A DNA stretch of 64,000 nt from Chrysomallon squamiferum. Taxonomy: Eukaryota; Animalia; Mollusca. The DNA is taken from the NCBI GenBank assembly GCA_012295275.1, contig CM022672.1, positions 10,416,001-10,480,000 on the forward strand. Reading direction: 5' to 3'. The stretch's first letter is position 1. Every line of letters begins with the position of its first letter. A program made the translations under genes and the position numbers. Positions 3,500-32,662 of this stretch are shown here, in pieces. The notes below the pieces were generated by a model. The model was not told the origin of the DNA. It did not search any database and saw nothing but the letters and a program-made list of their open reading frames with translations.

Positions 3500-3536
3500 C
3501 TAATGTATGTATGTTTTTGTATATTTTCAGGTAAGT
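3500..3536 (+). other. Candidate recursive splice site (3'ss immediately followed by a perfect 5'ss)
   Basis: ctaat (branch-like, 3500) ... gtttttgtatattttcag|gtaagt. Confidence 0.6.
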
Positions 3537-3974
3537 GTTCCAAAGTATTGGATGGTTGTTTTCTTGGTAAATGACACAATGTGATTAGAGAGAAGGTTCA
3601 AGTTTTTTTAATACTGATAAGAGGATCGAGGTAAAATAACACATAACACTGGTAAATATCACTGCATGTGATAAGGTTAAGATGGAATACAGAAATATAT
3701 TAAATGACAAAGTGCAAAAAGGTTCGTCATAAACAAGAAAATGATAAAATATTTATGAAAGTGTATTTATCTAAGATGAAAATAACAAGGATCATTTAAA
3801 AAATAATTATCAATTTTGAATTGTAACTTAGTAGTTTCAATGCTTAGTAGTCTCATTATCACAGTCTTAGTAGACTTTTTCCAACTCTGACTAGAGCAGT
3901 GATTCTCAGCCTTGATGGCAGCACCTCCTTCAGATGCTATAAATATATAAGGGATGATTGTAAATGATGTATAA

Positions 3975-5490
3975 TATACATGTCAGACTATCTGTCCATC
4001 TTCTCACTGTATAACACAGGTATCCCCTTTCTCACTGTATTATGTAGGTTCCAGATCATTTATCCCCTTTCTCACTGTATTAAATAGGTACCAGATCATT
4101 TATCTCCCTTTTTACTGTATTCTGTAGGTACCAGACCATTTATATCCCTTCTCATTATATTATGTAGGCACCAGTTCATTTATCCCCATTCTCACCATAT
4201 TATGTAAATACCAGACCATTTATCTCCATCCTCACTGTATAATGTAAATACCAGACCATTTATCTCCATCCTCACTGTATAATGTAAATACCAGTTCATT
4301 TATCCCCCTTCTCACTGTATTGTGTAAATACCAGACCATTTATCCCCCTACTCACTGTATTGTGTAAATACCAGACCATTTATCTCCCTTCTCACTGTAT
4401 AATGTAAATACCAGACCATTTATCTCCATCCTCACTGTATAATGTAAATACCAGACCATTTATCCCCCTTCTCACTGTATTATGTAAATACCAGACCATT
4501 TATCCCCTTCTCACTGTATAATGTAAATACCAGACCATTTATCTCCCTTCTTGCTCTATTATGTAATTACCAGTCCATTTATCTCCCTTTTCACTGTATT
4601 ATGTAAATACCAGATCATTTTTCCCCTTTCTCACTGTATTAAATACGTACCAGATCATTTATCTCCCTTTTACTGTATTCTGTCCAGTCCATTTATATCC
4701 CTTCTCATTATATTATGTAGGCACCAGATCCCCATTTATCTCCCATTTATCTCCACTGTATTATGTAAATCCATTGATCCCCTTCTCAGATCATTTCATT
4801 TATCCCCCTTCTCGCTGTATTATGTAAATACCAGTCCATTTATCCCCCTTCTCACTGTATTATGTAAATACCAGACCATTTATCCCCCTTCTCACTGTAT
4901 AATGCAGATACTAGACCATTTATCCCCCTTCTCACTGTATTATGTAAATACCAGATCATTTATCCCCCTTCTTACTGTATTTTATAGGTACCTGACTATT
5001 TATTCTCATTTTCACTTTATAATGTAAGGACCAGACCATTTATTCTCCTTCTCACTGTATTATGTAAGGACCAGACCATTTATTCCATCCTCCTTCCAGT
5101 TCATTTATCACTGTATTATGTAAATACCAGACCATTTATTCCATCCTCACTGTATAATGTAAATACCAGACCATTTATCTCCCTTCTCACTGTATAAATG
5201 ACCATTTAAATACCAGACCATTTATCTCCATCCTTTATCTCCATCCTCACTGTATAATGTAAATACCAGACCATTTATCTCCATCCTCACTGTATAATGC
5301 AGATACTAGACCATTTATCTCCATCCTCACTGTATAATGTAAATACCAGTTCATTTATCCCCCTTCTCACTGTATTATGTAAATACCAGACCATTTATCT
5401 CCCTTCTCACTGTATAATGTAAGAAACCAGACCATTTATCTCCATCCTCACGGTATAATGCAGATACTAGACCATTTATTCCCCTTTTTC
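3975..5490. repeat. 40-bp minisatellite (ctcactgtattatgtaaataccagaccatttatccccctt), more than 30 copies
   Basis: Direct 40-nt periodicity, with scrambled or partial units near 4680-4800 and 5090-5240. Confidence 0.97.
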
Positions 5491-5645
5491 TGAAACCTGA
5501 TTTAGAAGTGTATTTATTTGGTTAAATGCAAATTCATCTTTTGCTCTTGTTTTCTTTAGTTTATATTTAAAATACAATATTAAATAGTTGTCCAAAAAAC
5601 AAACTGGAAAATTTGTAAATGTTTATAACTTCACTACATAATTCA

Positions 5646-6373
5646 GTATATGGACATAAGTCCTCCAGAACAAAAAGACCCCAGTCCAAAAATGCACAGG
5701 TGGATAAAAGCAAGGTAGGATCACCTCTCTCCAGTGAAAAATCAAGGAAAGAGAAAAGTTCCCTTAATGAGAAAACAAGATAGGACAAATGATCCTAAAT
5801 GTAAAAATAAACTTTTTTAACATAGTTTAATAATTTCGCTTATCAAAATCATGGAATGTATCTATTTAGATATTTGTTAAACTAAATTGTGGGTGCTCAG
5901 CTTCCATAACTGATTAACTTTAAAAGTAATCCACATAATTAGCATAAAAGTGACTTAGCACACCTTAGAAAATACAAAATGTCATGTCTGGAGTTTTTGT
6001 CATGTTTTGATATTATTTTTGGAAATTATATTCATTTTTCAAAATGGTGAAATTCCCAAAATATGCTACAGTATATTATCTCATTTAATTCCATATGATA
6101 GAAATCTGCTTTGATAGAAATTGCATCCTTCATTTTAATTGTGATTATTATAACAGTTATTTTATAGTAGTAATTAATTATGCTGATAAAAAAAAAAAAT
6201 GATGATCATGCCATTATTATGCTGATTTTGATAAAGCTATGTCGTAGGTATGCTTTAATAAAGTGATTGTTTGCAAAATCTTCTGTGAGGAGGATCAGTC
6301 TTACTATATATTTCATTGGACGGCTTTTGTCCACCTGTGCATTTTTGGACTAAGGAGCTTATGTCCTACATTC
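5646..6373. mobile_element. Non-autonomous DNA transposon (MITE, probably Mutator-like), ~730 bp
   Basis: Inverted termini: agtccaaaaatgcacaggtggataaaagc (~5682-5710) vs gcttttgtccacctgtgcatttttggact (~6323-6351), 1 mismatch; ggacataag vs cttatgtcc further out. No TSD recognised. Confidence 0.7.
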
Positions 6374-6464
6374 ACATTGTACTTCTGTGACCAGCATAAA
6401 ATTTAACCCTCAAAATGATCAGAAAAGGGGAGCTGTGAAAAAGGGTTAAGAAACACTGACCCAC

Positions 6465-6635
6465 AGTGGTTTTTGTCAAAAGCTGTGGTATACAATTTTC
6501 TGTTTATGGAACAAATAAAAGATCTCATGCTGCTAATGAAGAACCCCTTGAGTGGCAGCAGTGGGTTTCCTCTCTTGTTGCCATGGTCCTTAAGCATGTA
6601 TAAGAGTCAGTACAAGTGAGATTATAAATGTGTTA
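6465..6635 (+). mobile_element. Old dispersed SINE-like repeat copy (related diverged copies at ~780-925, ~32340-32550, ~35105-35250, ~41300-41440, and minus-strand ~1060-1290)
   Basis: Shared motifs among copies: (g)catataaaagat...tgctgctaat, gggtttcctctc, gtggtcctt, and terminal ttaaataaaacattt. It resembles, from memory and unverified, an abundant gastropod short retroposon. Confidence 0.55.
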
Positions 6636-6896
6636 TGGGCCAAGTATTTTCACAAAAGATTGGATACTGAATTTTGATAACGTAAAGGTTATGGAATCAA
6701 GGTGATAAGGTATTTGAAATTTAGTTCAAAATATCCACAAAATAATGTTGATATTATAGTAACATGAAGGTAACCAGAAATTATATTATTCTGATTTTGA
6801 CTGAATGATAGCATTAGATCTATAAATTTATATAAATGTGTTATTTATTTCTATATTTTCTGAATGCCCCATTGTTTTTGTAAATCTCAAATCTTA

Positions 6897-6916
6897 GTGT
6901 GTGTGTGTGTGTGTGT

Positions 6917-6960
<44 letters not shown>
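6897..6960. repeat. (GT)n(GA)n compound microsatellite
   Basis: Direct reading. Confidence 0.95.
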
Positions 6961-9540
6961 TGCTAATTAATGACAAAAAGCCAGAAGGATAGAACAAATC
7001 TTAAAATGTATTAATAAAAAACTACATATATTTTTCTTTTTTAAAAGCCATATGAACAAAAACAAGAAATAGAGAAAACATAAAAGTATGATGAAACACA
7101 CAGCGGCACATATTTTATAGAAGAAAATTAATTACGAACTTTAAGTGCACATAGGCTGTACACTCACATAAGATATTGATTTGTATTATAAAATATTTAG
7201 TCACACAAAGCAAAACTAATCTGTATGTCTTTATCCATATATTAGAGCAGAACTAATGAAAAATTTAAAAATATATTATAAATAAAAGAGTTAGGAGGAG
7301 TGGGGGGTGAAAGACATTTTCTGAAAAACTTAATAAAGCTTATTTGTGATCTACTTTACCATCGTAACATTCAGATCTACCGAATTGGCACTGTGTGTTT
7401 GTTTTTCCAACTGATGAATTTTTCTTCATAATAAAACTTTTTTTTTTTTTTTTTCTCTACTTTTCCGAATTCCTGATTATAGTAATAAACATTTTAGTTG
7501 TAATGAATTTAAATATAAAAGTATTTTTAGATTAATTATTTTTGTTTCATTGTCAGTGTATGGGTAACAAAATTTACAATTCAGCAGCAGTCAATTTTTT
7601 TCTTGTCTTGTTGGGATATTTTGGGGATATATTTTTTTGTTTGTTTGCCAGTGTCATTTCAAATGTACCATAGGAGATAAAAGAAGCAGTTTAAATATAT
7701 TGTGCATGCTGACAAGTTTTATTTTATTTATTGGTTTTCTTTTGGGGTGGGAGTACTGTCCACATTTTAATTTTAATTAACATCAAAGTTAGAAATAATA
7801 AAGTAATGTTGCCATTTTTTTGAATGATGGGATATCACCACATACTGATTTGACTTTTTCTATTTTTCTATTGTTGTCATACAAAATAAAGCTATCCATC
7901 CACCAGACAGACATGAGATCTCTGATATCCAGATACATTCATGATCCCAGTTACAAAGAAGTAAAATAGCAGCCATTAAGTATTTTGTAACAATATTATT
8001 CTATTGTTACATTTTGTTATGGGCTGTGACAAAGCTGAGTTAATGTGTTGCAGAGAATTATGGTTAAACATCAAGTGCTTGTAGTCCTTTTAAGAAAGAC
8101 ATATATAAATCTGTGTGTGTGTGTGTGGGGGTGCACATGCATGACTGTGTGTGAGCATACAGTGGACTGTGCAGAAACCAGCATTTGACTAATCTGGATT
8201 TCTGAATAAACCCGCACCATTTCAAAGTCTGGTCCAGCTATTGTTAATCTATTATGAACAAAACCATGTCTAATCCAGATGTTATTTACTTCAGATTCTG
8301 AGTGCAAATTCCTTAAGAAAAGAACAGTTTATATAGTAGTTAGCAATGTCAACAACAGCACACACTTTTACAAGAACAATCACTTCTTACAACAGTTATG
8401 GCAATTTGCACTTAATTAGACTACTGCAGGAGCTGAAATGAGCTCTTCTTTGAAGACTTGATGCCATTGCTTCTTGTAAGTACTATGTGCAGCTAGATGA
8501 ACAAGATTATTATTAGTGTGTATTAATACCCAAGTGAATTAACTCATTCACTTTGGCACTTTTTATGTTGTCTTGCCTTATGGAATTCATATTAATGGCA
8601 GAGCAACCTAAAGATAAAAAAAAAACCCATCGAACTTTCAATGCAATCTAAAGTGAAATTGATAGAATAATTTTCATCAAATCCACTGTGTAAACGGAAA
8701 TTTAAAACACAGTGACCATTAAGAGAAAACTACAGTGAAACAAAATAAGTAATGACCAGCAATTTCAAAAATCTGAATGGATTGGCAAAACCTCAATCAG
8801 ATGTTTGTACACTGACTGAACTTTCATGCACCGACATTCTTAAAATGACAACACAAATTAAATCTTTTGCTGCTACTACTACTGAAAGCATGGAGGCCAT
8901 GACAGAGTAGTTTGCTTTGGAGCAAAATGTGAAGAAAAAAAACCCCACAGTCATCAGTGACAAATTATTTGATAGATGTAACATTTATAAACAAATATAT
9001 TCCAGTTTCATTTTTAATCTTTATGTACCGGCACTCTGTCTAAAATGGTGTATCTTGCTGATGTCAACTAAATCCAGTTTTGACAGTCTTGTGTCGGTGT
9101 ATGTGTTACTGTGTGTGTGTGTGTGCATGCAAAAACAAATTCATTTTTTTATTTTTTATTTTATATTTGTTACCAGTAATTATTTAAAATACTTAAAGTG
9201 AAAAGTAATTATTTAAAATTTTAAAGTGAAAAAGCAGGTTATACTATGCTGTTTAAAGGTGTTAGTCCAATATTAATTTTTAATTTGTTTTTCAGTGGCC
9301 CCGGTGTAACTTTAACCACCTTAAAATGCATTCGGATTTCAAACATATCGAGTGAAACTACAATGTAAACAAATAATAATAAAATTTAATTCATTAAGGG
9401 CAATTGTTGCACTTTCACAATTTCTTCAAACTCAGAATATCCTGAACAAATGTGAAGAACACTTATAAATTCTAATTCTTTCTTGTATTTTTCAAAGTTT
9501 TAGTGTTTCAGGTATTTAAAAATGCACATCAGATCATCAT

Positions 9541-12500
9541 CATGGAAATGTCAGTTCAAGAGTTCTTGAACAGCACAATTGAATATTGTGGGAGATATTT
9601 CAAAGGAAATCTCCCAGTCCCCTGTTTCCATCAGCAAAAACCTACTTTATATCTGCTGAGTGAACTCTTCACCTTCTTCTTGAACTCATCAGAATGAGCC
9701 ACTCACATCGGTTTGGTCAAAATAATTCAACAGTTTCTCTAGATTTTTAATATCAGGGATGTTGTCAGCTAGGAAAGCCATACCATCCTTTACCTGGTCC
9801 AGAGGTAGAAAGGCCACACCATCTATCATCCCTATCAACCTCTTGACTCCCCTTTCAAACAATTATAGGAACCTCAAAACCTTCAGCTAAGTGAACTGTG
9901 TAATTAACACAACTTTGAAGTTGTTTCTTTACAAATTCTGTGTTTTATGTGTTGTTGTTTTTAATTAACAACAAATTCTGTTATTTTTTATTAATAAAAT
10001 ATTAAGTAAAAATTTTATTAATAAAAAAACCTAAAGGTGAGCAGTTGTCTTGTTTCTCACTTCATTGGTGAACAGTTGCCCTTGTTTAATGATTCTGAGA
10101 AATTCCACTCAGTCATAGCTCAGTCAGTTTTCTAGTATCAACATTTACTATGCAATTTTTTTAAGCTTTTAATTTTAGTCTAACTGGTTATGTCAGTATC
10201 TCATTTTTTAATTTTTGAAAGTGCTTGAAAGAACCTGATGTATTGGAATTATGTAATTATTGTGATACAAATGCACTGTCATTATGATACTGTGTAACTT
10301 AATACACTAATGTGCGTGTGTGTAAATGTTTACCTAATGATTCAGTGCCTTTTTCAGCTATAGAAGCTAAATGAAAATATTTTCTCTTCTCTTATTTAGA
10401 CTGAATATAGAGGATATGGCTTGCTCTTTTGTCAAAATGATTAAAAAAAAAAAATTAATTATTAAACTGCTGGAATATTTGTCACTGGTTTATTTGATTA
10501 TTCGTTCACTGTTATCATTTTCACTGATGTATAAACAATTTATTTTCATGTGTACAAAAAGAAAATAACTTCCTTGTTGAAAATTTAAATAATTGTTGAT
10601 AGGAAGATATTTTAATTAAATCTGTTGACAATGAAATATTCAGTTACAGTTACCACTGTTAACCCCTTTAACTCACACCTTGATTTTCATAGATTTCAGG
10701 AAATCCAGACCAAATCTGGCAAAATCTTAAAATCTCATTACTGGATTATAACATAGCTGTTAAGTGTACTAAAGTTCAGTGTTCTGTAAATTTCATGTTA
10801 ATGTTTGTCTGGACTTTTGCATTTTCCAGACTAGTGCTGCCCCCTACTAGTCAAGTGTCAACAACATACACTGTATATGTTATGGATGGAGAAAAGATAT
10901 TTTCCCAATCTAGAAATGCATGTCTGTGTTTGAGACCACAATTTTAATTTCTTTTATTTTTTTAAATTAATGTTTCTTTGTTTTTATTTCTTTTATTGGA
11001 AGAAATTCTGAATCTTTCCATTTTGTCTGTATCTAATACCAACCTCTTTGTACCTGTTCAAATATTAGCAAATTTTACTATTAAACTAATTTGGTTGTGT
11101 CTTTCCTTTGTCCTCCGTAGAGTAAGTCATAAAAATATCTTCCATGTCACTGAACCAGGATTTTAAACTAGTGAGAAAATTAAAAAAATTAATAAAAACA
11201 ACAGATTACAAATAGCTTCAGTCTGTTTCCGGTCAGTTGAAGAAAAGGTTATTGACTTGTATCTGTCAACAAGTCTTTGTCACAAATAGTATTCTTCACT
11301 TCCACCCAAATCTGCTAAGCTCAATACAGACTGTTCATCATTTATCCAAATCTTAAAATCTTAAAATTTCAAATACAGTGATGATGTAGTGATGATTTAA
11401 TTGCCACCACAATTGCTGATTTGTTTATCACAAAACTTTTATTTTATTTTAGGTTATGGTATGTGTATGTAAATGGTTGGGTAAGAGTGGCAGTCGTAGT
11501 TAAAAAAATTATACAAAAATTAATCCTATATCAGCTGTATTTTAAACAAATTCACATCAGTTCACCATGGAAGTGTCAGTACAAGAGTTCTTGAACAGCA
11601 CAACTGAATATCGTGGGAGATATTTCAAAGGAAATCTCCCAGTCCCCTGTTTCATCAGCAAAAACCTACTTTATATCTGCTGAGTGAACTCTTCACCCTC
11701 TTCCTGAGCTCATCAGAATGTGCCACTCACATAGGTTTGGTCAAAATAATTCAACAGTTTCTCTAGATATTCAATATCAGGGATGTTGTCAGCTAGGAAA
11801 GTCATACCATCCTTTACCTGGTCCAGAGGTAGAAAGGCCACACCATCTATCATCCCTATCAACCTCTTGACTCCCCTTTCAAACAATTGTAGGAACCTCA
11901 AAACCTTCAGCTAAGTGAACTGTGTAATTAACACAACTTTGAAGTTGTTCCTTTACAAATTCTGTGTTTTATGTGTTGTTGTTTTTAATTAACAACAAAT
12001 TCTGTTAATTTTTATTAATAAAATACTAAGAAAATTTTTTATTAATAAAAAAACCTAAAGGTGAGCAGTTGTCTTGTTTCTCACTTCATTGGTGAACAGT
12101 TGCCCTTGTTTAATGATTCTGAGAAATTCCACTCAGTCATAGCTCAGTCAGTTTTCTAGTATCAACAAAGACTTTGCAGTTTTTTTAAGCTTTTAATTTT
12201 AGTCTAACTGATTATGTCAGTATCTCATTTTTTAATTTTTGAAAGTGCTTGAAAGAACCTGATGTATTGGAATTATGTAATTATTGTGATACAAATGCAC
12301 TGTCATTATAATACTGTGTAACTTAATACACTAATGTGCGTGTGTGTAAATGTTTACCTAATAATACAGTGCCTTTTTCAGCTGTCTGTATCGAAGCTAA
12401 ATGAAAATATTTTCACTTCTTCTCTTACTTAGAGTGAATGTAGACTATATGGCTTGATCTTTTATAAAATCTTTAAAAGAAAATTAATTATTAAACTGCT

Positions 12501-15500
12501 GGAATATTTGTCACTGGTTTATTTGATTATTCGTTCACTGTTATCATTTTCACTGATGTATAAACAATTTATTTTCATGTGTACAAAAAGAAAATAACTT
12601 CCTTGTTGAAATTTAAATAATTGTTGATAGGAAGATATTTTAATTAAATCTGTTGACAATGAAATATTCAGTTACAGTTACCGCTGTTAACCCCTTTAAC
12701 TCACACCTTGATTTTCCTAGATTTCAGGAAATCCAGACCAAATCTGGCAAAATCTTAAACTCTCATTACTGGATTTTAACATAGCTGTTAAGTGTACTAA
12801 AGTTCAGTGTTCTGCAAATTTCATGTTAATGTTTGTCTGGACTTTTACATTTTCCAGACGAGTGCTGCCCCCTACTAGTCAAGTGTCAACAACATACACT
12901 GTATATGTTATGGATGGAGAAAAGATATTTTCCCAATCTAGAAATGCATGTCTGTGTTTGAGACCACAATTTTAATTTATTTTATTTTTTTAAATTAATG
13001 TTTCTTTGTTTTTATTTCTTTTATTGGAAGAAATTCTGAATCTTTCCATTTTGTCTGTATCTAATACCAACCTCTTTGTACCTGTTCAAATATTAGCAAA
13101 TTTTACTATTAAACTAATTTGGTTGTGTCTTTCCTTTGTCCTCAGTAGAGTAAGTCATAAAAGTATCTTCCATGTCACTGAACCAGGATTTTAAACTAAT
13201 GAGAAAATTAAAAAATTAATAAAAACAACAGATTGCAAATAGCTTCAGTCTATTGCCGGTCAGCTGAAGAAAAGTTCATTGACTTGTATCTGTCAACAAG
13301 TCTTTGTCACAAATAGTATTCTTCACTTCCACCCAAATCTGCTAAGCTCAATACAGACTGTTCATCATTTATCAAAATCTTAAAATTTCAAATATAGTGA
13401 TGATGTAGTGATGATTTAATTGCCACCACAATTGCTGATTTGTTTATCACAAACTTTTAATTTTATTTTAGGTTATGGTATGTGTATGTAAATGGTTGGG
13501 TAAGAGTGGCAGTCGTACTTAAAAAAATTATACAAAAATTAATCCTGTATCAGCTGTATTTTAAACAAGTTCACATCAGTTCACCATGGAAGTGTCAGTA
13601 CAAGAGTTGTTGAACAGCACAATTGAATATCGTGGGAGATATTTCAAAGAAAATCTCCCAGTCCCCTGTTTCCATCAGCAAAAACCTACTTTATATCTGC
13701 TGAGTGAACTCTTCACCTTCTTCCTGAGCTCATCAGATTGAGCCACTCACATAGGTTTGGTCAAAATAATTCAAGTTTCTCTAGATTTTCAATATCAGGG
13801 ATGTTGTCAGCTAGGAAAGCCATACCATCCTTTACCTGGTCCAGAGGTAGAAAGACCACACCATCTATCATCCCTATCAACCTCTTGACTCCCCTTTCAA
13901 ACAATTATAGGAACCTCAAAACCTTCAGCTAAGTGAACTGTGTAATTAACACAACTTTGAAGTTGTTCCTTTACAAATTCTGTGTTTTATGTGTTGTTGT
14001 TTTTAATTAACAACAAATTCTGTTAATTTTTATTAATAAAATACTAAGAAAATTTTTTATTAATAAAAAATCCTAAAGGTGAGCAGTTGTCTTGTTTCTC
14101 ACTTCATTGGTGAACAGTTGCCCTTGTTTAATGATTCTGAGAAATTCCACTCAGTCATAGCTCAGTCAGTTTTCTAGTATCAACAAAGACTTTGCAGTTT
14201 TTTAAGCTTTTAATTTTAGTCTAACTGATTATGTCAGTATCTCATTTTTTAATTTTTGAAAGTGCTTGAAAGAACCTGATGTATTGGAATTATGTAATTA
14301 TTGTGATATAAATAAGTCATTATAGCATTGTGTATCTTAATACATGTGTGTGTGTAAATGTTTACCTAATAATACAGTGCCTTTTCCAGCTGTCTGTAGA
14401 AGCTAAATGAAAATATTTTCACTTCTTCTCTTACTTGGAGTGAATGTAGACTATATGGCTTGATCTTTTATAAAATGATTAAAAAAAAATTAATTATTAA
14501 ACTGCTGGAATATTTGTCACTGGTTTATTTGATTATTCATTCACTGTTATCATTTTCACTGATGTATAAACAATTTATTTTCATGTGTACAAAAAGAAAA
14601 TAACTTCCTTGTTGAAATTTAAATAACTGTTGATAGGAAGATATTTTAATTAAATCTGTTGACAATGAAATATTCAGTTACAGTTACCGCTGTTAACCCC
14701 TTTAACTCACACCTTGATTTTCCTAGATTTCAGGAAATCCAGACCAAATCTGGCAAAATCTTAAAATCTCATTACTGGATTATAACATAGCTGTTAAGTG
14801 TACTAAAGTTCAGTGTTCTGTAAATTTCATGTTAATGTTTGTCTGGACTTTTGCATTTTCCAGACGAGTGCTGCCCCCTACTAGTCAAGTGTCAACAACA
14901 TACAGTGTATATGGTATGGATGGAGAAAAGATATTTTCCCAATCTAGAAATGCATGTCTGTGTTTGAGACCACAACTTTAATTTCTTTTATTTTTTTTAA
15001 ATTAATGTTTCTTTGTTTTTATTTCTTTTATTGGAAGAAATTCTGAATCTTTCCATTTTGTCTGTATCTAATACCAACCTCTTTGTACCTGTTCAAATAT
15101 TAGCAAATTTTACTATTAAACTAATTTGGTTGTGTCTTTCCTTTGTCCTCCGTAGAGTAAGTCATAAAAGTATCTTCCATGTCACTGAACCAGGATTTTA
15201 AACTAATGAGAAAATTAAAAAAATTAATAAAAACAACAGATTACAAATAGCTTCAGTCTGTTTCCGGTCAGTTGAAGAAAAGGTTATTGACTTGTATCTG
15301 TCAACAAGTCTTTGTCACAAATAGTATTCTTCACTTCCACCCAAATCTGCTAAGCTCAATACAGACTGTTCATCATTTATCCAGAATTTGAAAATCTTAA
15401 AATTTCAAATATAGTGATGATGTAGTGATGATTTAATTGCCACCACAATTGCTGATTTGTTTATCACAAAACTTTTATTTTATTTTAGGTTATGGTATGT

Positions 15501-15990
15501 GTATGTAAATGGTTGGGTAAGAGTGGCAGTTTCTGCTTAAAAAAAAAAAAAAAAATTATACAAAAATTAATCCTATATCAGCTGTATTTTAAACAAATTC
15601 ACATCAGTTCACCATGGAAGTGTCAGTACAAGAGTTGTTGAACAGCACAATTGAATATCGTGGGAGATATTTCAAAGGAAATCTCCCAGTCCCCTGTTTC
15701 CATCAGCAAAAACCTACTTTATATCTGCTGAGTGAACTCTTCACCTTCTTCCTGAGCTCATCAGAATGAGCCACTAACATAGGTTTGGTCAAAATAATTC
15801 AACAGTTTCTCTAGATTTTCAATATCAGGGATGTTGTCAGCTAGGAAAGCCATACCATTCTTTAACTGGTCCAGAGGTAGAAAGGCCAGACCATCTATCA
15901 TCCCTATCAACCTCTTGACTCCCCTTTCAAACAATTATAGGAACCTCAAAACCTTCAATTAAGTGAATTGTGTAATTAACACAACTTTGT
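9541..15990. repeat. Tandem array of ~2.02-kb units (~3.2 copies), plus a deleted/diverged partial copy at ~16390-17215
   Basis: The same catggaa.tgtcagt.caagag anchor occurs at 9541, 11566, 13585 and 15613 (periods 2025/2019/2028); near-identical ORF-track hits at 10978, 13006, 15013 and 16840. Confidence 0.97.
11690..11910 (-). pseudogene. Mutator-like (MULE) DDE transposase fragment, repeated in every 2-kb unit (also ~9670-9890, ~13715-13930, ~15740-15955)
   Basis: Translation GVKRLIGMIDGVAFLPLDQVKDGMTFLADNIPDIEYLEKLLNYFDQTYVSGTF** matches the MULE 'LAFLP...YF..TY..G' segment; the TGA TGA stops are consistent with CGA CGA decay. Confidence 0.8.
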
Positions 15991-16077
15991 GTATTTTAAT
16001 TTTAATTATTTATTGATTTATTTATTATGTTTTATCCCTTATTTACATTTACAAACAAAATTAATGATAAAAGATTA

Positions 16078-16115
<38 letters not shown>

Positions 16116-16473
16116 TAATTTATCTTTTTTTATTCCTTTCATGTTTCATGCACAACTTTTAATACTGTTAAATAAAAGGATTGCTAAATAAAATTACTAC
16201 ATATATTTCTGAATCACAATTACACAATCCCAGTATAAGTAAAAATCATTTTAAATTATCACTGCTGCAGTATAAATGCTTTAAATGACAAATCATAGTT
16301 AAACACTTAAGTTATTTAATTCTTACATTAAGTGTGACAGTACTAATTTCTATTACATATATCCTTTGTTTTAAAATCATGTTATGAAGATGCTTGAAAG
16401 AACCTGATATATTTGAATTATGTAATTATTGTGATATAAATGATAGTCACTATAACATTGTGTATCTTAATAC

Positions 16474-16520
<47 letters not shown>

Positions 16521-17089
16521 ACCTAATAATACAGTGCCTTTTTCAGCTGTCTATAGAAGCTAAATGAAAATATTTCCACTTCTTCTCTTACTTGGAGCAC
16601 ATGTAGAGTGTATGGCTTGCTCTTTTATAAAATGAATAAAAACAAACAAAATTAATTAGTAAACTGTTGGAATATTTGTCACTGGTTTATTTGATTATTC
16701 GTTCACTGTTATCATTTTCTGTGATGGATAAACAATTTATTTTTGGTGTGTACAAAAAGAAAATAACTTCCTTGTTGAAACTTTAAATAATTGTTGATAG
16801 GAATTTTAATTTCTTTTATCCTTTTTAATTCATGTTTCTTTGTTTTTATTTCTTTTATTGGAAGAAATTCTGAATCTTTCCATTTTGTCTGTATCTAATA
16901 CCAGCCTCTTTGTACCTGTTCAAACATTAGCAAATTTTACTTTTAAACTAATTTGGTTGTGTCTTTCCTTTGTCCTCCGTAGAGTAAGTCATAAAAGTAT
17001 CTTCCATGTCACTGCACTGGGATTTTAAACTAATGAGAAAAATCTAGAAAATAATAAAAAGTAATAAAAACAACAGATTGCAAATAGCT

Positions 17090-17644
17090 TCAGTCTGTTT
17101 CTGGTCATTTGAAGAAAAGTTTATTGACTTTTATCTGTCAACAAGTCTTTGTCACAAATAGTATTCTTCACTTCCACCCAAATCTACTAAGCTCAATACA
17201 GACTGTTCATCACTGATCCAAAATTTCCAAATCTTATTGTATCTAAGAGAGTGATGATTTAGTGTACATAAAATTGATTTCTTGGACAAAATTACTAAAA
17301 ATATTATATAACACTGCATGCAATCTATTTGTTTAGTCTTTTGTTTTTAGATTTATATCATATTCTCAGATATCTCCTTTTATTTCAAAATCTAAAACAT
17401 TTCCATGTGTAAGCACTTTGGATAAGCCATTTTCAACCTATAGCTTTAAAAGTCACCATATCCCCCCACCCAGCTGGTTTCACAGTCACATTTACCTGTA
17501 CCACCATATTTACAGCATCAAGTCATGGAGAAGGATATTTGCAGCTTTGTAATTAATATAATTTACAATGTGTATGTAAATTAAGGATGTGTGTCTCTTG
17601 GAATTCAATTATTTTTATGTTTGTTCCCTAAGAAAATGTTTGCA

Positions 17645-17676
<32 letters not shown>

Positions 17677-18478
17677 GCAGCTAATGTTTTATTACATTAT
17701 TAATTTGTACCATTTAAAATATCTACAATTTTTTAATATCTGTTCAAACATTAGCAAATTTCATTTCTAGACAAATTTGATTATGTCTCAGTGTTTTGCT
17801 CATTACAGTCAGTCCTAAAAGTTAGGTTCCATGTCACTGAACCGGGATTTTAAATTAATGAGAAAAAAAATGTAGAAAATTACAAATATTAATAAGAATA
17901 TAACTGTTTACCACCAGCATCAGTCTTTTCCCAGTCAGATGAAGAAAAAAGTTTATTGACTTTTATCTGTCAACAAGTCTTTTTGTCACAAATAGTATTC
18001 TTCACTTCCACCCAAATCTACTAAGCTCAATACAGACTGTTCATCACTGATCCAAAATTTCCAAATCTTATTGTATCTAAGAGAGTGATGATTTAGTGTA
18101 CATAAAATTGATTTCTTGGACAAAATTACTAAAAATATTATATAACACTGCATGCAATCTATTTGTTTAGTCTTTTGTTTTTAGATTTATATCATATTCT
18201 CAGATATCTCCTTTTATTTCAAAAATCTAAAACATTTCCATGTGTAAGCACTTTGGATAAGCCATTTTCAACCTATAGCTTTAAAAGTCACCATATCCCC
18301 CACCCAGCTGGTTTCACAGTCACATTTACCTGTACCACCATATTTACAGCATCAAGTCATGGAGAAGGATATTTGCAGCTTTGTAATTAATATAATTTAC
18401 AATGTGTATGTAAATTAAGGATGTGTGTCTCTTGGAATTCAATTATTTTTATGTTTGTTCCCTAAGAAAATGTTTGCA

Positions 18479-18514
<36 letters not shown>

Positions 18515-20130
18515 GCAGCTAATGTTTTATTACATTATTAATTTGTACCATTTAAAATATCTACAATTTTTTAATATCTGTTCAAACATTAGCAAATTTC
18601 ATTTCTAGACAAATTTGATTATGTCTCAGTGTTTTGCTCATTACAGTCAGTCCTAAAAGTTACGTTCCATGTCACTGAACCGGGATTTTAAATTAATGAG
18701 AAAAATGTAGAAAATTACAAATATTAATAAGAATATAACTGTTTACCACCAGCATCAGTCTTTTCCCAGTCAGATGAAGAAAAGTTTATTGACTTTTATC
18801 TGTCAACAAGTCTTTGTCACAAATAGTATTCTTCACTTCCACCCAAATCTACTAAGCTCAATACAGACTGTTCATCACTGATCCAAAATTTCCAAATCTT
18901 ATTGTATCTAAGAGAGTGATGATTTAGTGTACATAAAATTGATTTCTTGGACAAAATTACTAAAAATATTATATAACACTGCATGCAATCTATTTGTTTA
19001 GTCTTTTGTTTTTAGATTTATATCATATTCTCAGATATCTCCTTTTATTTCAAAATCTAAAACATTTCCATGTGTAAGCACTTTGGATAAGCCATTTTCA
19101 ACCTATAGCTTTAAAAGTCACCATATCCCCCCACCCAGCTGGTTTCACAGTCACATTTACCTGTACCACCATATTTACAGCATCAAGTCATGGAGAAGGA
19201 TATTTGCAGCTTTGTAATTAATATAATTTACAATGTGTATGTAAATTAAGGATGTGTGTCTCTTGGAATTCAATTATTTTTATGTTTGTTCCCTAAGAAA
19301 ATGTTTGCACACACATACACACACACACACACACACAGCAGCTAATGTTTTATTACATTATTAATTTGTACCATTTAAAATATCTACAATTTTTTAATAT
19401 CTGTTCAAACATTAGCAAATTTCATTTCTAGACAAATTTGATTATGTCTCAGTGTTTTGCTCATTACAGTCAGTCCTAAAAGTTACGTTCCATGTCACTG
19501 AACCGGGATTTTAAATTAATGAGAAAAATGTAGAAAATTACAAATATTAATAAGAATATAACTGTTTACCACCAGCATCAGTCTTTTCCCAGTCAGATGA
19601 AGAAAAGTTTATTGACTTTTATCTGTCAACAAGTCTTTGTCACAAATAGTATTCTTCACTTCCACCCAAATCTACTAAGCTCAATACAGACTGTTCATCA
19701 CTGATCCAAAATTTCCAAATCTTATTGTATCTAAGAGAGTGATGATTTAGTGTACATAAAATTGATTTCTTGGACAAAATTACTAAAAATATTATATAAC
19801 ACTGCATGCAATCTATTTGTTTAGTCTTTTGTTTTTAGATTTATATCATATTCTCAGATATCTCCTTTTATTTCAAAATCTAAAACATTTCCATGTGTAA
19901 GCACTTTGGATAAGCCATTTTCAACCTATAGCTTTAAAAGTCACCATATCCCCCCCCAGCTGGTTTCACAGTCACATTTACCTGTACCACCATATTTACA
20001 GCATCAAGTCATGGAGAAGGATATTTGCAGCTTTGTAATTAATATAATTTACAATGTGTATGTAAATTAAGGATGTGTGTCTCTTGGAATTCAATTATTT
20101 TTATGTTTGTTCCCTAAGAAAATGTTTGCA

Positions 20131-20162
<32 letters not shown>

Positions 20163-20956
20163 GCAGCTAATGTTTTATTACATTATTAATTTGTACCATT
20201 TAAAATATCTACAATTTTTTAATATCTGTTCAAACATTAGCAAATTTCATTTCTAGACAAATTTGATTATGTCTCAGTGTTTTGCTCATTACAGTCAGTC
20301 CTAAAAGTTAGGTTCCATGTCACTGAACCGGGATTTTAAATTAATGAGAAAAATGTAAAAATTACAAATATTAATAAGAATATAACTGTTTACCACCAGC
20401 ATCAGTCTTTTCCCAGTCAGATGAAGAAAAGTTTATTGACTTTTATCTGTCAACAAGTCTTTGTCACAAATAGTATTCTTCACTTCCACCCAAATCTACT
20501 AAGCTCAATACAGACTGTTCATCACTGATCCAAAATTTCCAAATCTTATTGTATCTAAGAGAGTGATGATTTAGTGTACATAAAATTGATTTCTTGGACA
20601 AAATTACTAAAAATATTATATAACACTGCATGCAATCTATTTGTTTAGTCTTTTGTTTTTAGATTTATATCATATTCTCAGATATCTCCTTTTATTTCAA
20701 AATCTAAAACATTTCCATGTGTAAGCACTTTGGATAAGCCATTTTTCAACCTATAGCTTTAAAAGTCACCATATCCCCCACCCAGCTGGTTTCACAGTCA
20801 CATTTACCTGTACCACCATATTTACAGCATCAAGTCATGGAGAAGGATATTTGCAGCTTTGTAATTAATATAATTTACAATGTGTATGTAAATTAAGGAT
20901 GTGTGTCTCTTGGAATTCAATTATTTTTATGTTTGTTCCCTAAGAAAATGTTTGCA

Positions 20957-20988
<32 letters not shown>

Positions 20989-21783
20989 GCAGCTAATGTT
21001 TTATTACATTATTAATTTGTACCATTTAAAATATCTACAATTTTTTAATATCTGTTCAAACATTAGCAAATTTCATTTCTAGACAAATTTGATTATGTCT
21101 CAGTGTTTTGCTCATTACAGTCAGTCCTAAAAGTTACGTTCCATGTCACTGAACCGGGATTTTAAATTAATGAGAAAAATGTAGAAAATTACAAATATTA
21201 ATAAGAATATAACTGTTTACCACCAGCATCAGTCTTTTCCCAGTCAGATGAAGAAAAGTTTATTGACTTTTATCTGTCAACAAGTCTTTGTCACAAATAG
21301 TATTCTTCACTTCCACCCAAATCTACTAAGCTCAATACAGACTGTTCATCACTGATCCAAAATTTCCAAATCTTATTGTATCTAAGAGAGTGATGATTTA
21401 GTGTACATAAAATTGATTTCTTGGACAAAATTACTAAAAATATTATATAACACTGCATGCAATCTATTTGTTTAGTCTTTTGTTTTTAGATTTATATCAT
21501 ATTCTCAGATATCTCCTTTTATTTCAAAATCTAAAACATTTCCATGTGTAAGCACTTTGGATAAGCCATTTTCAACCTATAGCTTTAAAAGTCACCATAT
21601 CCCCCCACCCAGCTGGTTTCACAGTCACATTTACCTGTACCACCATATTTACAGCATCAAGTCATGGAGAAGGATATTTGCAGCTTTGTAATTAATATAA
21701 TTTACAATGTGTATGTAAATTAAGGATGTGTGTCTCTTGGAATTCAATTATTTTTATGTTTGTTCCCTAAGAAAATGTTTGCA

Positions 21784-21817
<34 letters not shown>

Positions 21818-24260
21818 GCAGCTAATGTTTTATTACATTATTAATTTGTACCATTTAAAATATCTACAATTTTTTAATATCTGTTCAAACATTAGCAAAT
21901 TTCATTTCTAGACAAATTTGATTATGTCTCAGTGTTTTGCTCATTACAGTCAGTCCTAAAAGTTAGGTTCCATGTCACTGAACCGGGATTTTAAATTAAT
22001 GAGAAAAATGTAGAAAATTACAAATATTAATAAGAATATAACTGTTTACCACCAGCATCAGTCTTTTCCCAGTCAGATGAAGAAAAGTTTATTGACTTTT
22101 ATCTGTCAACAAGTCTTTGTCACAAATAGTATTCTTCACTTCCACCCAAATCTACTAAGCTCAATACAGACTGTTCATCACTGATCCAAAATTTCCAAAT
22201 CTTATTGTATCTAAGAGAGTGATGATTTAGTGTACATAAAATTGATTTCTTGGACAAAATTACTAAAAATATTATATAACACTGCATGCAATCTATTTGT
22301 TTAGTCTTTTGTTTTTAGATTTATATCATATTCTCAGATATCTCCTTTTATTTCAAAATCTAAAACATTTCCATGTGTAAGCACTTTGGATAAGCCATTT
22401 TCAACCTATAGCTTTAAAAGTCACCATATCCCCCCACCCAGCTGGTTTCACAGTCACATTTACCTGTACCACCATATTTACAGCATCAAGTCATGGAGAA
22501 GGATATTTGCAGCTTTGTAATTAATATAATTTACAATGTGTATGTAAATTAAGGATGTGTGTCTCTTGGAATTCAATTATTTTTATGTTTGTTCCCTAAG
22601 AAAATGTTTGCACACACATACACACACACACACACACACACAGCAGCTAATGTTTTATTACATTATTAATTTGTACCATTTAAAATATCTACAATTTTTT
22701 AATATCTGTTCAAACATTAGCAAATTTCATTTCTAGACAAATTTGATTATGTCTCAGTGTTTTGCTCATTACAGTCAGTCCTAAAAGTTAGGTTCCATGT
22801 CACTGAACCGGGATTTTAAATTAATGAGAAAAATGTAGAAAATTACAAATATTAATAAGAATATAACTGTTTACCACCAGCATCAGTCTTTTCCCAGTCA
22901 GATGAAGAAAAGTTTATTGACTTTTATCTGTCAACAAGTCTTTGTCACAAATAGTATTCTTCACTTCCACCCAAATCTACTAAGCTCAATACAGACTGTT
23001 CATCACTGATCCAAAATTTCCAAATCTTATTGTATCTAAGAGAGTGATGATTTAGTGTACATAAAATTGATTTCTTGGACAAAATTACTAAAAATATTAT
23101 ATAACACTGCATGCAATCTATTTGTTTAGTCTTTTGTTTTAGATTTATATCATATTCTCAGATATCTCCTTTTATTTCAAAATCTAAAACATTTCCATGT
23201 GTAAGCACTTTGGATAAGCCATTTTCAACCTATAGCTTTAAAAGTCACCATATCCCCCACCCAGCTGGTTTCACAGTCACATTTACCTGTACCACCATAT
23301 TTACAGCATCAAGTCATGGAGAAGGATATTTGCAGCTTTGTAATTAATATAATTTACAATGTGTATGTAAATTAAGGATGTGTGTCTCTTGGAATTCAAT
23401 TATTTTTATGTTTGTTCCCTAAGAAAATGTTTGCACACACATACACACACACACACACACACACAGCAGCTAATGTTTTATTACATTATTAATTTGTACC
23501 ATTTAAAATATCTACAATTTTTTAATATCTGTTCAAACATTAGCAAATTTCATTTCTAGACAAATTTGATTATGTCTCAGTGTTTTGCTCATTACAGTCA
23601 GTCCTAAAAGTTAGGTTCCATGTCACTGAACCGGGATTTTAAATTAATGAGAAAAATGTAGAAAATTACAAATATTAATAAGAATATAACTGTTTACCAC
23701 CAGCATCAGTCTTTTCCCAGTCAGATGAAGAAAAGTTTATTGACTTTTATCTGTCAACAAGTCTTTGTCACAAATAGTATTCTTCACTTCCACCCAAATC
23801 TACTAAGCTCAATACAGACTGTTCATCACTGATCCAAAATTTCCAAATCTTATTGTATCTAAGAGAGTGATGATTTAGTGTACATAAAATTGATTTCTTG
23901 GACAAAATTACTAAAAATATTATATAACACTGCATGCAATCTATTTGTTTAGTCTTTTGTTTTTAGATTTATATCATATTCTCAGATATCTCCTTTTATT
24001 TCAAAAATCTAAAACATTTCCATGTGTAAGCACTTTGGATAAGCCATTTTCAACCTATAGCTTTAAAAGTCACCATATCCCCCACCCAGCTGGTTTCACA
24101 GTCACATTTACCTGTACCACCATATTTACAGCATCAAGTCATGGAGAAGGATATTTGCAGCTTTGTAATTAATATAATTTACAATGTGTATGTAAATTAA
24201 GGATGTGTGTCTCTTGGAATTCAATTATTTTTATGTTTGTTCCCTAAGAAAATGTTTGCA

Positions 24261-24294
<34 letters not shown>

Positions 24295-26232
24295 GCAGCT
24301 AATGTTTTATTACATTATTAATTTGTACCATTTAAAATATCTACAATTTTTTAATATCTGTTCAAACATTAGCAAATTTCATTTCTAGACAAATTTGATT
24401 ATGTCTCAGTGTTTTGCTCATTACAGTCAGTCCTAAAAGTTACGTTCCATGTCACTGAACCGGGATTTTAAATTAATGAGAAAAATGTAGAAAATTACAA
24501 ATATTAATAAGAATATAACTGTTTACCACCAGCATCAGTCTTTTCCCAGTCAGATGAAGAAAAGTTTATTGACTTTTATCTGTCAACAAGTCTTTGTCAC
24601 AAATAGTATTCTTCACTTCCACCCAAATCTACTAAGCTCAATACAGACTGTTCATCACTGATCCAAAATTTCCAAATCTTATTGTATCTAAGAGAGTGAT
24701 GATTTAGTGTACATAAAATTGATTTCTTGGACAAAATTACTAAAAATATTATATAACACTGCATGCAATCTATTTGTTTAGTCTTTTGTTTTTAGATTTA
24801 TATCATATTCTCAGATATCTCCTTTTATTTCAAAAATCTAAAACATTTCCATGTGTAAGCACTTTGGATAAGCCATTTTCAACCTATAGCTTTAAAAGTC
24901 ACCATATCCCCCACCCAGCTGGTTTCACAGTCACATTTACCTGTACCACCATATTTACAGCATCAAGTCATGGAGAAGGATATTTGCAGCTTTGTAATTA
25001 ATATAATTTACAATGTGTATGTAAATTAAGGATGTGTGTCTCTTGGAATTCAATTATTTTTATGTTTGTTCCCTAAGAAAATGTTTGCACACACATACAC
25101 ACACACACACACACACACAGCAGCTAATGTTTTATTACATTATTAATTTGTACCATTTAAAATATCTACAATTTTTTAATATCTGTTCAAACATTAGCAA
25201 ATTTCATTTCTAGACAAATTTGATTATGTCTCAGTGTTTTGCTCATTACAGTCAGTCCTAAAAGTTACGTTCCATGTCACTGAACCGGGATTTTAAATTA
25301 ATGAGAAAAATGTAGAAAATTACAAATATTAATAAGAATATAACTGTTTACCACCAGCATCAGTCTTTTTCCAGTCAGATGAAGAAAAGTTTATTGACTT
25401 TTATCTGTCAACAAGTCTTTGTCACAAATAGTATTCTTCACTTCCACCCAAATCTACTAAGCTCAATACAGACTGTTCATCACTGATCCAAAATTTCCAA
25501 ATCTTATTGTATCTAAGAGAGTGATGATTTAGTGTACATAAAATTGATTTCTTGGACAAAATTACTAAAAATATTATATAACACTGCATGCAATCTATTT
25601 GTTTAGTCTTTTGTTTTTAGATTTATATCATATTCTCAGATATCTCCTTTTATTTCAAAATCTAAAACATTTCCATGTGTAAGCACTTTGGATAAGCCAT
25701 TTTCAACCTATAGCTTTAAAAGTCACCATATCCCCCCACCCAGCTGGTTTCACAGTCACATTTACCTGTACCACCATATTTACAGCATCAAGTCATGGAG
25801 AAGGATATTTGCAGCTTTGTAATTAATATAATTTACAATGTGTATGTAAATTAAGGATGTGTGTCTCTTGGAATTCAATTATTTTTATGTTTGTTCCCTA
25901 AGAAAATGTTTGCACACACATACACACACACACACACACACACAGCAGCTAATGTTTTATTACATTATTAATTTGTACCATTTAAAATATCTACAATTTT
26001 TTAATATCTGTTCAAACATTAGCAAATTTCATTTCTAGACAAATTTGATTATGTCTCAGTGTTTTGCTCATTACAGTCAGTCCTAAAAGTTACATTCCAT
26101 GTCATTGAACCGGGATTTTAAATTAATGAGAAAAATGTAGAAAATTACAAATATTAATAAGAATATAACTGTTTACCACCAGCATCAGTCTTTTCCCAGT
26201 CAGATGAAGAAAAGGTTATTGACTTTTATCTG
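17090..26232. repeat. Satellite array of ~826-bp near-identical units, 11 copies
   Basis: Anchor aatctactaagctcaataca at 17181, 18015, 18846, 19669, 20493, 21320, 22149, 22974, 23797, 24626 and 25451; units differ mainly in (CA)n and homopolymer lengths. Confidence 0.98.
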
Positions 26233-26902
26233 CCATGAAATGCTAGAAATGCTATTCTTTGCTTGCACTCAAATCCACAAATGGATTTTGTTTCTAGATT
26301 TATATCATGTTCTCGGCTATCTCCTTTTATTTCAAACTCCAAAATATTTCCAGCTGTAAGCTTTTTGAATAAAGATTCTCACCCTATACCTTTACAACTA
26401 TCTCCCTTTTCAATAGTGATAAAATGTTTTAATGTTTTTTAAAAATAATTGATCAACCTCAGAAACATGTATAATAGTGTCAGGGTTGGGGACCCTGAAT
26501 TCACTGTCTTACAGTCAGCTTGTTCTCTGTGTTTATAAACTCAACATTGCATGAAATGAAATCAGTTTTGATTAGGCAGTAAAAGAGAGAAGTGCAAGAA
26601 GAACAAAAGAAAGGACTAAACAAAGGGAATATAAAAATTGTGCAGAATTAATACATTTAAAAGTAAAAATAGTGTAACAATTAATTTGTCTATAAAATGG
26701 TAGGAAAAGACAAAGAAAGACTTCATCATCACAAGAAACCTGTATTAAATAAAACAGTTTACTGATAATGTCAGACATTGTCTAATCACCTTTAGAATAA
26801 ATTGTTGACTTGTACCAAAATTATATTTATATATAGATATATATATATATAAGTAAAAAAAAAAAAAAAAATTATATTTATATATGTATCTGTATATATG
26901 TA

Positions 26903-26933
<31 letters not shown>

Positions 26934-28777
26934 CTTGGGGGGGTTTTGGGGGGTTTGTTTTGTTTTGGTTTGTTCTTTTGAGTAAAAAAACAATTTAATG
27001 CATTATCACACAAAGTATTATAAAATTCAAGTGATGAAATATGTATAGTCAGCCTGCCTTAGCCATGGATTTGGCATGCATAGTTTGTCCAATTGCAGCT
27101 GAAAAAGATTTTTCAACATTACACTTCAGTAAATTGTAATTTTTTCTAAAATACTGTAGTCAGTGTGATTTACATGGGTTTTGATGGTTCTTAGTGGTAC
27201 CTCTTGTATGGTTTTAAGCGATGAATACACAGAAGGTAAAATTACATCATTTTGTGTAAGTATCCTGACATCTAGAGGTTTCTTGGTAGAGCTCTTGAAC
27301 CTCTGGATAGGGAGGGCAGACTTTAATCACCATGTAACTGTTTATCTTAGGAGATGACTTTCCAGTGTTCTTAGAGACTGTCTCAAATCATCACTTGTTT
27401 TGTTTCTGGCAAGCAAAAATTTAATTTGCTGTATATTAAATATTAAAATACAGATAATAATATGTAGTTCATTTGTAAACTGCATACTTTGTTTGAAATC
27501 TCACTGTGAAATGAATAAAGCTAACTAGATTGAAAATAATTAGATTATTTCAGTAAGGACAGAAGAGAACATTTAGATAATTACAGCTGACAGCAGCATT
27601 TAAAACTTAGGTGATTTCCCAAAAGCAAATTATTAAATAACTAAAATTTGAAAATATAAAAATACAGTAAAACACCTTTTTTAATAAAATATATTTTTAT
27701 TAAATGTGCAGTCGTGAAATATTGATTTTATATTTACTTACTAGATATTATGTAACTATGTTAAAGATGGAAAACAAATATTTTCTCAGTCTAGAACACT
27801 ACAATAGGTTGGGGAATATTAAATTAATGTTAGTCTTTCTTTTAAGTCATTACACTTTTAAACATCTGTCCATTCTTACTATTGAAAGAAATTTTGAATT
27901 CCCTATTTTTATTTTTATTTTCAAAATAGCTAATATAAAATATTGTAAGGTTTACACATTAATTGCTCATATTTAATTAATTTATTATTTACATTTTTTT
28001 AAATTTCATGATACAGGTAGAAATTTCACTGACTCTACTAACTGTCAGATTTTAATTTAAATTTTATTACTATGTTTAATAAAAGAAATTACTAAACACT
28101 AAAAGGTCATATTTTCAGTAAATTTTAATTATTTGTTTTAAAATGCTGGTAGAAAAACAATTATCCAGCTTCTAGAAATATATTAATCTATTAATATAGT
28201 TTTGTACATAACTATTAATTATTTTTTTTTATATTAAACCTTAGACTGGAAAAGTGAAAAAAGAAAGAAAAAAAAAAAAAAAAGTTTGTGAATGTTAATC
28301 ATGCTGCATAAATTGTCTGAAACCAGTATTTTAAAATCATTACATCCATATGGGGGGGGACAAAAAACCTTTATGAGAAGATCATTTTCAATATCAGTGA
28401 TAAAAACTTATTTGACAATTTTGTTGTTGTTGCACATTCAGTTACATTCATAATTCAAAATTCAAAATTTACCAAAATAATTTATTTGATACCGTACCAA
28501 GCAAACAGCCCAATTGTGAGCACTAGTTTCAGCTGTGGTTGGTCATACTACCAGTTCATTTTTTATGCACCTTTATTTTATACAAACCATTGTCTTGTCC
28601 TAACTCCAGTAGTGAACATATGTTAGTGTTTTCTGTCATGTATAAGCATTAAACCAGTCATTTCTGCCCTTCAGAGGTCCTTGTAGATTTGGTCTTTAAA
28701 ACTCTTAAAAAGTAGTTCTGTTGAAATGTTTTGTGTTGTATATTATCATATAAATTTACATATGGTAACTTTAGCAT

Positions 28778-28812
28778 ACTAAAATGTATTTTCTTTTTCT
28801 TTTCAGGTAAGT
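28778..28812 (+). other. Candidate recursive splice site (3'ss immediately followed by a perfect 5'ss)
   Basis: actaa (branch-like) ... ttttctttttcttttcag|gtaagt. Confidence 0.65.
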
Positions 28813-29247
28813 TTACTGAAACCTGGGTCTGTTGTGTGATGTTTTGATATGAGAGGATTTTTCTGCACATCAAAAACCCCACAAAAAAACCAAAGAAGTA
28901 TTTCTAGTCTTCCAGTGATAAGATTGTCTGTCTGCCCACAGAGACCATCTTTAAAAAGTGTTCAACAAATTTATTTCCCTAATAATTATCATTCTTCTTA
29001 TTCCCGACATAATATCAAAATAATCTGGGGGCAATGGCCTTATTTTAAACAAAATTTTAATTTTTTTTTTTTTTTTTTTTTATTAGTTAATATACATGTG
29101 CAATATCTACTGGTTTACATTGTGTTGACATTCCCAAATAATATTCTTTATTTTATTTTTTAAATTACTGTTACTATTCACAAAACCATACCATATTTTT
29201 TTTTTTTTTTTTTTCATTTTTTTTTTAAAATTAATAACACACACATA

Positions 29248-29248
<1 letters not shown>

Positions 29249-29290
<42 letters not shown>

Positions 29291-29356
29291 TCCATTTTTA
29301 TTTGAGTGAGAATAATTTATATTATTCATTTATACTGATACATTTATTAAAATTAA

Positions 29357-29410
<54 letters not shown>
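29249..29410. repeat. Two (ATT)n tracts
   Basis: Direct reading. Confidence 0.9.

Positions 29411-32631: not shown

Positions 32632-32662
<31 letters not shown>

Follow-up and report, generated by a model that had tools for sequence, protein, structure and literature searches.

Recursive splicing, the stepwise removal of a long intron at fixed sites, is known in flies and vertebrates. In Drosophila, intronic ratchet points are known in Ubx, kuz, osp, luna and Bx (Duff et al. 10.1101/006163; Pai et al. PMC6110457; Joseph et al. PMC8605326), with TT at positions -6/-5 in 196 of 197 ratchet points and recursive segments of 2.6-64 kb (mean 18 +/- 9 kb). The present analysis concerns a stretch of 64,000 nucleotides (nt) from the gastropod mollusc Chrysomallon squamiferum (GenBank assembly GCA_012295275.1, contig CM022672.1, positions 10,416,001 to 10,480,000, forward strand), hereafter the window, and two candidate ratchet points, sites 1 and 2, in the long 5' intron of a gene that by homology is the nuclear receptor NR5A/FTZ-F1. 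Analysis of assembled RNA revealed a junction between the distal first coding exon of this gene and site 2.

Comparison with the fly sites revealed several likenesses. At the snail locus a strong acceptor and a donor are juxtaposed with TT at -6/-5, deep in the long 5' intron of a developmental regulator; a junction leads from an annotated 5' exon to an intronic AG|GT; no trace is seen in homologous proteins; and the segments, two of them of about 20-25 kb (>3.5, 25.3 and 19.7 kb in all), lie within the fly range. As in Drosophila Bx, the sites are present only in the distal-promoter isoform. Unlike the fly cases, the host is a mollusc and site 2 is without a clear donor for a cryptic recursive-splicing exon (RS-exon); in Drosophila sawtooth patterns and lariats are known, whereas the snail case is known from motif, position and one junction. 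Vertebrate RS-exon sites (Sibley et al. 2015, as cited in PMC8605326 and PMC13149111) likewise consist of a 3' splice site and an immediate donor that is rebuilt after the first splice. According to these two papers most of them mark the start of a defined RS-exon, which is often expressed, and complete skipping is uncommon, in contrast to the snail intron, which has two sites and no inclusion seen.

In the literature consulted, other invertebrates are represented by motif counts only. A sense-strand excess of fused sites in invertebrate introns >50 kb, to which the snail sites conform, was reported by Shepard et al. (PMC2773006) from DNA only and for 13 species without a mollusc or other spiralian. 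The motif count covers four insects and a sea urchin, a 2026 review names recursive splicing for flies, mice and humans, and a lungfish preprint tests it in a giant genome. No report of recursive splicing in a mollusc was found in our literature searches, most subscription papers being outside their reach. What is new here is the RNA junction in a mollusc, which is direct but thin and concerns one of the two sites. A snail junction of this kind would add Spiralia, the second major branch of the protostomes, to the groups with recursive splicing, and is relevant to the question of whether ratchet points at fixed positions are ancestral.

Fused splice sites in the long NR5A/FTZ-F1 intron

The two sites are as follows.

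3500-3536, + strand: candidate ratchet point 1, with CTAAT, a T-rich tract and CAG|GTAAGT, cut before 3531; recognised from sequence only.
28779-28812, + strand: ratchet point 2, with CTAAA and CAG|GTAAGT, cut before 28807; serves the distal exon as 3' splice site.

A search of the whole window found the 13-mer TTTTCAG|GTAAGT at 3524-3536 and 28800-28812, both on the + strand, and no copy on the - strand. This confirms the positions and the FTZ-F1 strand given by the initial annotation, and the measured spacing of 25,276 nt agrees with its 25.3 kb. Its claim that two copies are unlikely by chance was also upheld: in 100 dinucleotide shuffles the mean count of the 13-mer was 0.01 and a count of 2 was never reached (0/100). 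Since the 13-mer was chosen post hoc, the looser, hit-independent class TTNYAGGTRAGT was analyzed as well, with Markov models of orders 0 to 5 that had been fitted to the de-repeated window and were applied to positions 1-48478. For this class 0.04-0.10 copies were expected, with P(>=2) of 0.0007-0.005; two were observed on the + strand and none on the - strand. The bare loose core YAGGTRAG occurred at chance level (five found, 4.3 expected), hence the motif signal stems from the complete acceptor plus donor.

Among 64 + strand YAG|GT sites, the two motifs occupied ranks 1 and 2 when scored by donor match and pyrimidine tract. A T-rich tract and a branch-like ctaa had been described 5' of each, and the words were located as CTAAT at -31 for site 1 (from 3500) and CTAAA at -28 for site 2 (from 28779). 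In the tract of site 2, 16 of 17 letters are pyrimidines. When the 1308 + strand YAG acceptors in 1-48478 are ordered by a simple pyrimidine score, site 2 comes first and site 1 78th. On the transcribed strand, each site joins a strong acceptor with TT at -6/-5 to a consensus donor.

The coding exons of the host gene within the window are listed below.

42031-42400, + strand: proximal alternative first exon; ATG at 42319, 25 of 27 amino acids identical to isoform X3 of Gigantopelta aegis, spliced from 42400 to 48479.
48479-48607, + strand: first of the common coding exons, encoding the first zinc finger (ASTSGG...CESCK); the long intron ends at its acceptor.
49665-49805, 50461-51124 (FTZ-F1 box), 51930-52034, 52641-52794 and 53180-53427, + strand: other NR5A/FTZ-F1 coding exons.

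A Pfam scan of two partial open reading frames found no family, so the gene was identified through homologs. The best protein match is an NR5A2-like receptor (P0001; 85% over the query) from the vent snail G. aegis; it carries Pfam PF00105 and PF00104. With tblastn this protein mapped all domains onto the window, with 85-100% identity in the cleanly aligned exons, and six common coding exons spanning 48479-53427. The predicted product has the C4 zinc-finger DNA-binding domain, then the FTZ-F1 box, plus the ligand-binding domain of an NR5A receptor; a 15-residue stretch encoded in exon 50461-51124 is what we take to be the FTZ-F1 box. In this hinge and ligand-domain exon the frame shifts relative to P0001 near 50690, and the RNA runs contain 0.81-0.88 of its words, which would fit a small assembly indel.

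NR5A of G. aegis has three annotated N-termini (isoforms X1, X2 and X3). The N-terminus of isoform X3 matches at 42319 with a score of 132; those of isoforms X1 and X2 are unmatched in 1-48478, with scores of 35 and 27 that fall within shuffled levels. The proximal first exon, which had been missed in the initial annotation, ends at 42400 and bypasses both ratchet points. As exons of the X1 and X2 types are absent from the window, these two conserved 5' exons likely lie to its left, which would make the intron from them to 48479 longer than 48 kb, consistent with the distal exon and long intron proposed earlier. This gene is expressed and the intron is above 11 kb, the threshold taken for a long intron; its distal exon, outside the window, is joined in RNA to 28807, and the next used acceptor is 48479.

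The X2-type exon ('MIQ...E', then the A-S of the common exon) is kept in proteins of Haliotis, Pecten, Pinctada, Mactra and Ruditapes, where 'MIQ...E|AS' continues directly into the ASTS exon. The X1-type N-terminal exon recurs in Patella, Littorina and Dreissena. Across gastropods and bivalves, molluscan NR5A keeps at least two alternative N-terminal exon types, 'MIQ' and 'LTLDAI...VVVDYIL' (proteins P0001, P0014, P0015, P0018, P0020, P0022, P0034 and P0040), which recall the alpha and beta isoforms of insect FTZ-F1. No protein of C. squamiferum itself with a distal N-terminus was recognised among 60 homolog matches (N-termini of 27 inspected).

The RNA junction at site 2

The RNA evidence consists of assembled contigs from four RNA runs (X1-X4) of a single study; contig depths are rough, and contigs carry no strand, level or sawtooth information and drop rare forms. 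Run X5 comes from a different study, its kind unrecorded, and was taken as DNA (a single 2152-nt contig over the intron, depth 45). The region of site 2, 28430-29170, was compared with RNA runs X1, X3 and X4 and with run X5. Run X1 contributed one contig of 112 nt (depth 9.54) to this region.

28805-28888, + strand: footprint of the run X1 contig; starts at the AG of the motif, no mismatches.

Letters 29-112 of the contig match 28805-28888 at 84 of 84 positions and are preceded by 28 foreign letters, which are absent from the window (at least 11 mismatches anywhere, no shared word longer than 9). Translated in all six frames, the foreign letters give ADLEDNAV in one. Of eight homologs compared, G. 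aegis isoform X2 matches best: its residues 28-35 read ADQEDSAV, identical at 6 of 8 positions; the chance of such a match is about 1e-6 to 2e-5 at fixed register. The shared AG at 28805-06 finishes a Glu codon, corresponding to residue 36 (E), the last before the ASTS exon in isoform X2, and leaves one G, which is the phase-1 base for the Ala codon at 48479. Because the foreign letters match the X2-type exon end in frame and phase, the contig is the 3' end of the distal MIQ first coding exon spliced to 28807. Site 2 is in use as an acceptor, and splicing to it recreates a perfect donor, which makes this joint a 'ratchet junction' as in recursive splicing. The rebuilt donor, AAG|GTAAGT (the distal exon ends in AAG), has 9 of 9 consensus matches; the six other donors of the gene have 7-8 of 9. 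Pai et al. (PMC6110457) regard a read of the exon-to-ratchet-point kind as direct evidence of a recursive event. The upstream exon joined to 28807, which the initial annotation had named as the junction to look for, is present in this one contig, from one of three RNA runs.

Sequence on either side of the joint was analyzed in the same runs. No RNA contig lies on 28430-28804, the 375 nt upstream of site 2, and the cover of run X1 begins at 28805, a pattern that would suit a coverage reset there. An ordinary exon with the motif at its 3' end was rejected for site 2, since that stretch has no RNA contig and no listed joint leaves 28806. No unspliced RNA contig of runs X1, X3 and X4 crosses site 2. 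The contig of run X5, probably DNA, crosses the motif unbroken and without a branch; hence the exon-28807 junction is not seen as a genomic copy.

A total of 14 joints were listed for 28650-48649, of which only 42400 to 48479 has GT..AG ends (runs X1 and X3); this joint confirms the proximal exon. The other 13, with non-GT..AG ends and sides of 20-38 letters, were set aside as repeats. None of the listed joints starts at 28806 or at a donor shortly beyond it, and none leads from there to 48479. In run X1 the depth is 60.6 for the common exon vs 8.8 for the proximal joint, which leaves room for other upstream partners. Retention of site sequence in mature mRNA was seen neither as a listed joint to 48479 nor as an insert in 68 homolog N-termini, given that rare forms drop from contigs; peptides from the read-through of either site have no like among the same 68.

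The initial annotation had placed the next step at a microexon acceptor at 47240, giving a last segment of 18.4 kb. This does not hold: no listed joint leads to 47241, contigs of runs X1 and X3 cross it unspliced, and the microexon was rejected as the intron end. The used acceptor seen is 48479, and the last segment, 28807 to 48479, is 19.7 kb. The sequence at 47221-47240 is nonetheless a strong acceptor (rank 6 of 1308) with a branch-like CTAAT, and shows no use among the RNA contigs.

Probable stepwise removal and rival explanations

We conclude that site 2 is a recursive splice site, with a probability of about 0.78. Site 1 probably is one too, a prediction from its motif and position that we hold a little less firmly. 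The intron of >48 kb is likely removed in steps, as in flies. In step one, observed in RNA, the AG|GT at 28807 receives the distal first coding exon. In step two the rebuilt AAG|GTAAGT donor would be re-spliced to 48479; this would produce the AVE|AST junction known from relatives' proteins and leave no trace in mRNA. The distal exon would lie left of the window in cis, with splicing proceeding co-transcriptionally from 5' to 3'. Site 1 (3531) would act likewise one step earlier, and the 28807 junction reads identically either way; there would probably be three steps, of >3.5, 25.3 and 19.7 kb. Phase-1 read-through past 28807 meets a stop after 12 codons, so failed re-splicing would be costly; the 9/9 rebuilt donor would outcompete downstream cryptic donors and keep this read-through out of the message. 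Of the stepwise removal proposed in the initial annotation, the junction at 28807 is borne out by the contig, and site 1 is a candidate by its motif. Only distal-promoter isoforms would depend on these sites, which could determine when, or in which isoforms, this key developmental nuclear receptor is produced.

Several observations weigh against this conclusion. The junction comes from a single contig of a single run and study, runs X3 and X4 being without cover and uninformative either way. Its foreign side of 28 letters is below the 30-letter minimum for a trusted joint. A mature joint linking the distal exon with 48479 is missing from the rows listed. RNA support is at site 2 only, site 1 being argued from its letters, and the pyrimidine tract of site 1 is weaker than that of site 2. 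Furthermore, Joseph et al. (PMC8605326) describe ratchet points as defined by means of a cryptic exon, about 50 nt long, and its downstream donor, and site 2 has no GT or GC donor of at least 6 of 9 matches within 320 nt. The best donors there reach 5 of 9, at +20, +91 and +108; the count is crude, and 10% of random intron points are also without a donor of that strength. The missing cryptic donor is a lead, not a result. Site 2 may work as a true zero-length exon without a defining cryptic RS-exon, outside the current unified model, and a site without an evident cryptic donor constitutes a direct test of the RS-exon model. Site 1 has weak donor candidates at +36 and +50, at background rate, the first of which gives the following feature.

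3531-3566, + strand: possible cryptic RS-exon of site 1, predicted from the letters; 36 nt, weak donor TTG|GTAAAT (6/9), in frame and stop-free in phase 1.

The thinness of the RNA evidence raises the question of an artefact, either an assembly chimera or template switching of the reverse transcriptase where AG|GTAAGT letters are shared. One contig from one run with 28 foreign letters would fit this, and the distal exon's own donor, outside the window, could share several letters with the motif. However, the joint coincides to the letter with the exon end on one side and with the strongest acceptor of the 48 kb on the other, its depth of 9.5 exceeds the 2.8-6.2 of intronic run X1 pieces (rough depths), and an unspliced RNA contig across site 2 is missing; an artefact is very improbable. 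A genuine junction by itself demonstrates step one only, and 28807 could instead be where a cryptic exon begins, of the poison or terminal type, so that some transcripts reach a dead end or are sent to regulated decay while most splice straight to 48479. The early read-through stop suits such an exon, as does the end of the contig at 28888, inside an A-run, with its continuation unseen. The 5/9 donors downstream and the missing listed joint from the site 2 region to 48479 count against it. There is no poly(A) signal within 500 nt of site 2, the first AATAAA/ATTAAA being 540 nt away, and the contig stops after 6 of 7 A's, which would fit an assembly branch at a homopolymer length better than a poly(A) tail. 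Such an exon would also start with a perfect GTAAGT, as does the second site in the same intron, a coincidence that chance fails to explain, and we consider it improbable.

Site 2 might also be the sole ratchet point, with site 1 unused or the start of a sometimes-included 36-nt in-frame exon like the Ubx microexons. The rank of the site 1 acceptor, 78 of 1308, and the stop-free stretch with its weak donor suit this explanation. On the other hand, site 1 has the identical 13-mer on the same strand of the same intron at a fly-like spacing, and the 12-residue insert occurs in no homolog (0 matches for the RS-exon peptide in 68 homolog N-termini). Overall, a role for site 2 without site 1 is somewhat unlikely, and recursive splicing at both sites remains our preferred interpretation.

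Related loci, wider significance and intron content

FBgn0001078 is presumably fly ftz-f1. In its 33.7-kb intron the table of Pai et al. (PMC6110457) has one medium-confidence candidate with zero junction reads (in_duff = 0), which is too weak to argue shared ancestry of the ratchet site. Among 80 NR5A loci, with at most 10 kb of upstream sequence each, no motif was found on either strand, and an exact motif-site scan of metagenome sequence gave 0 matches and no orthologous intron. Comparison of run X5 with the window revealed nine listed differences in 28475-28759 and none in 28760-29042 (p ~0.004-0.02); coming from one haplotype, this is a weak indication that the surroundings of site 2 are constrained.

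It is possible, though doubtful, that fly-type, fully skipped ratchet points are routine in molluscs and that protostomes (or bilaterians) share the stepwise removal of long introns at fixed sites, which would then not be an insect speciality. A cheap genome-wide test is at hand, as public total-RNA contigs of non-model animals can contain ratchet junctions, in the form of short contigs with an exon end in front.

Within the intron from 42400 to 48479, positions 43260-44500 have RNA contig depth up to 132 (run X1) with many loose ends and indels, probably a dispersed repeat. Tandem repeats are present between the ratchet points.

4021-26232: three tandem arrays (40-bp, ~2.02-kb and ~0.83-kb units), filling 68% of the segment between the ratchet points.

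The first array (4021-5492), a minisatellite, lies 490 nt beyond site 1 and consists of about 35 copies of its 40-bp unit; it is followed by units of ~2.02 kb with ~95% identity (9504-15989) and by about 11 copies of ~0.83-kb units with ~98% identity (16913-26232). The two long arrays have a segment of ~360-460 nt in common, and neither unit has a stop-free frame >85 amino acids. Each 2-kb unit bears a strong, unused-looking donor, AAG|GTGAGC (10037, 12061 and 14079). As the arrays fill 68% of it, the middle segment may have grown in length by repeat expansion.

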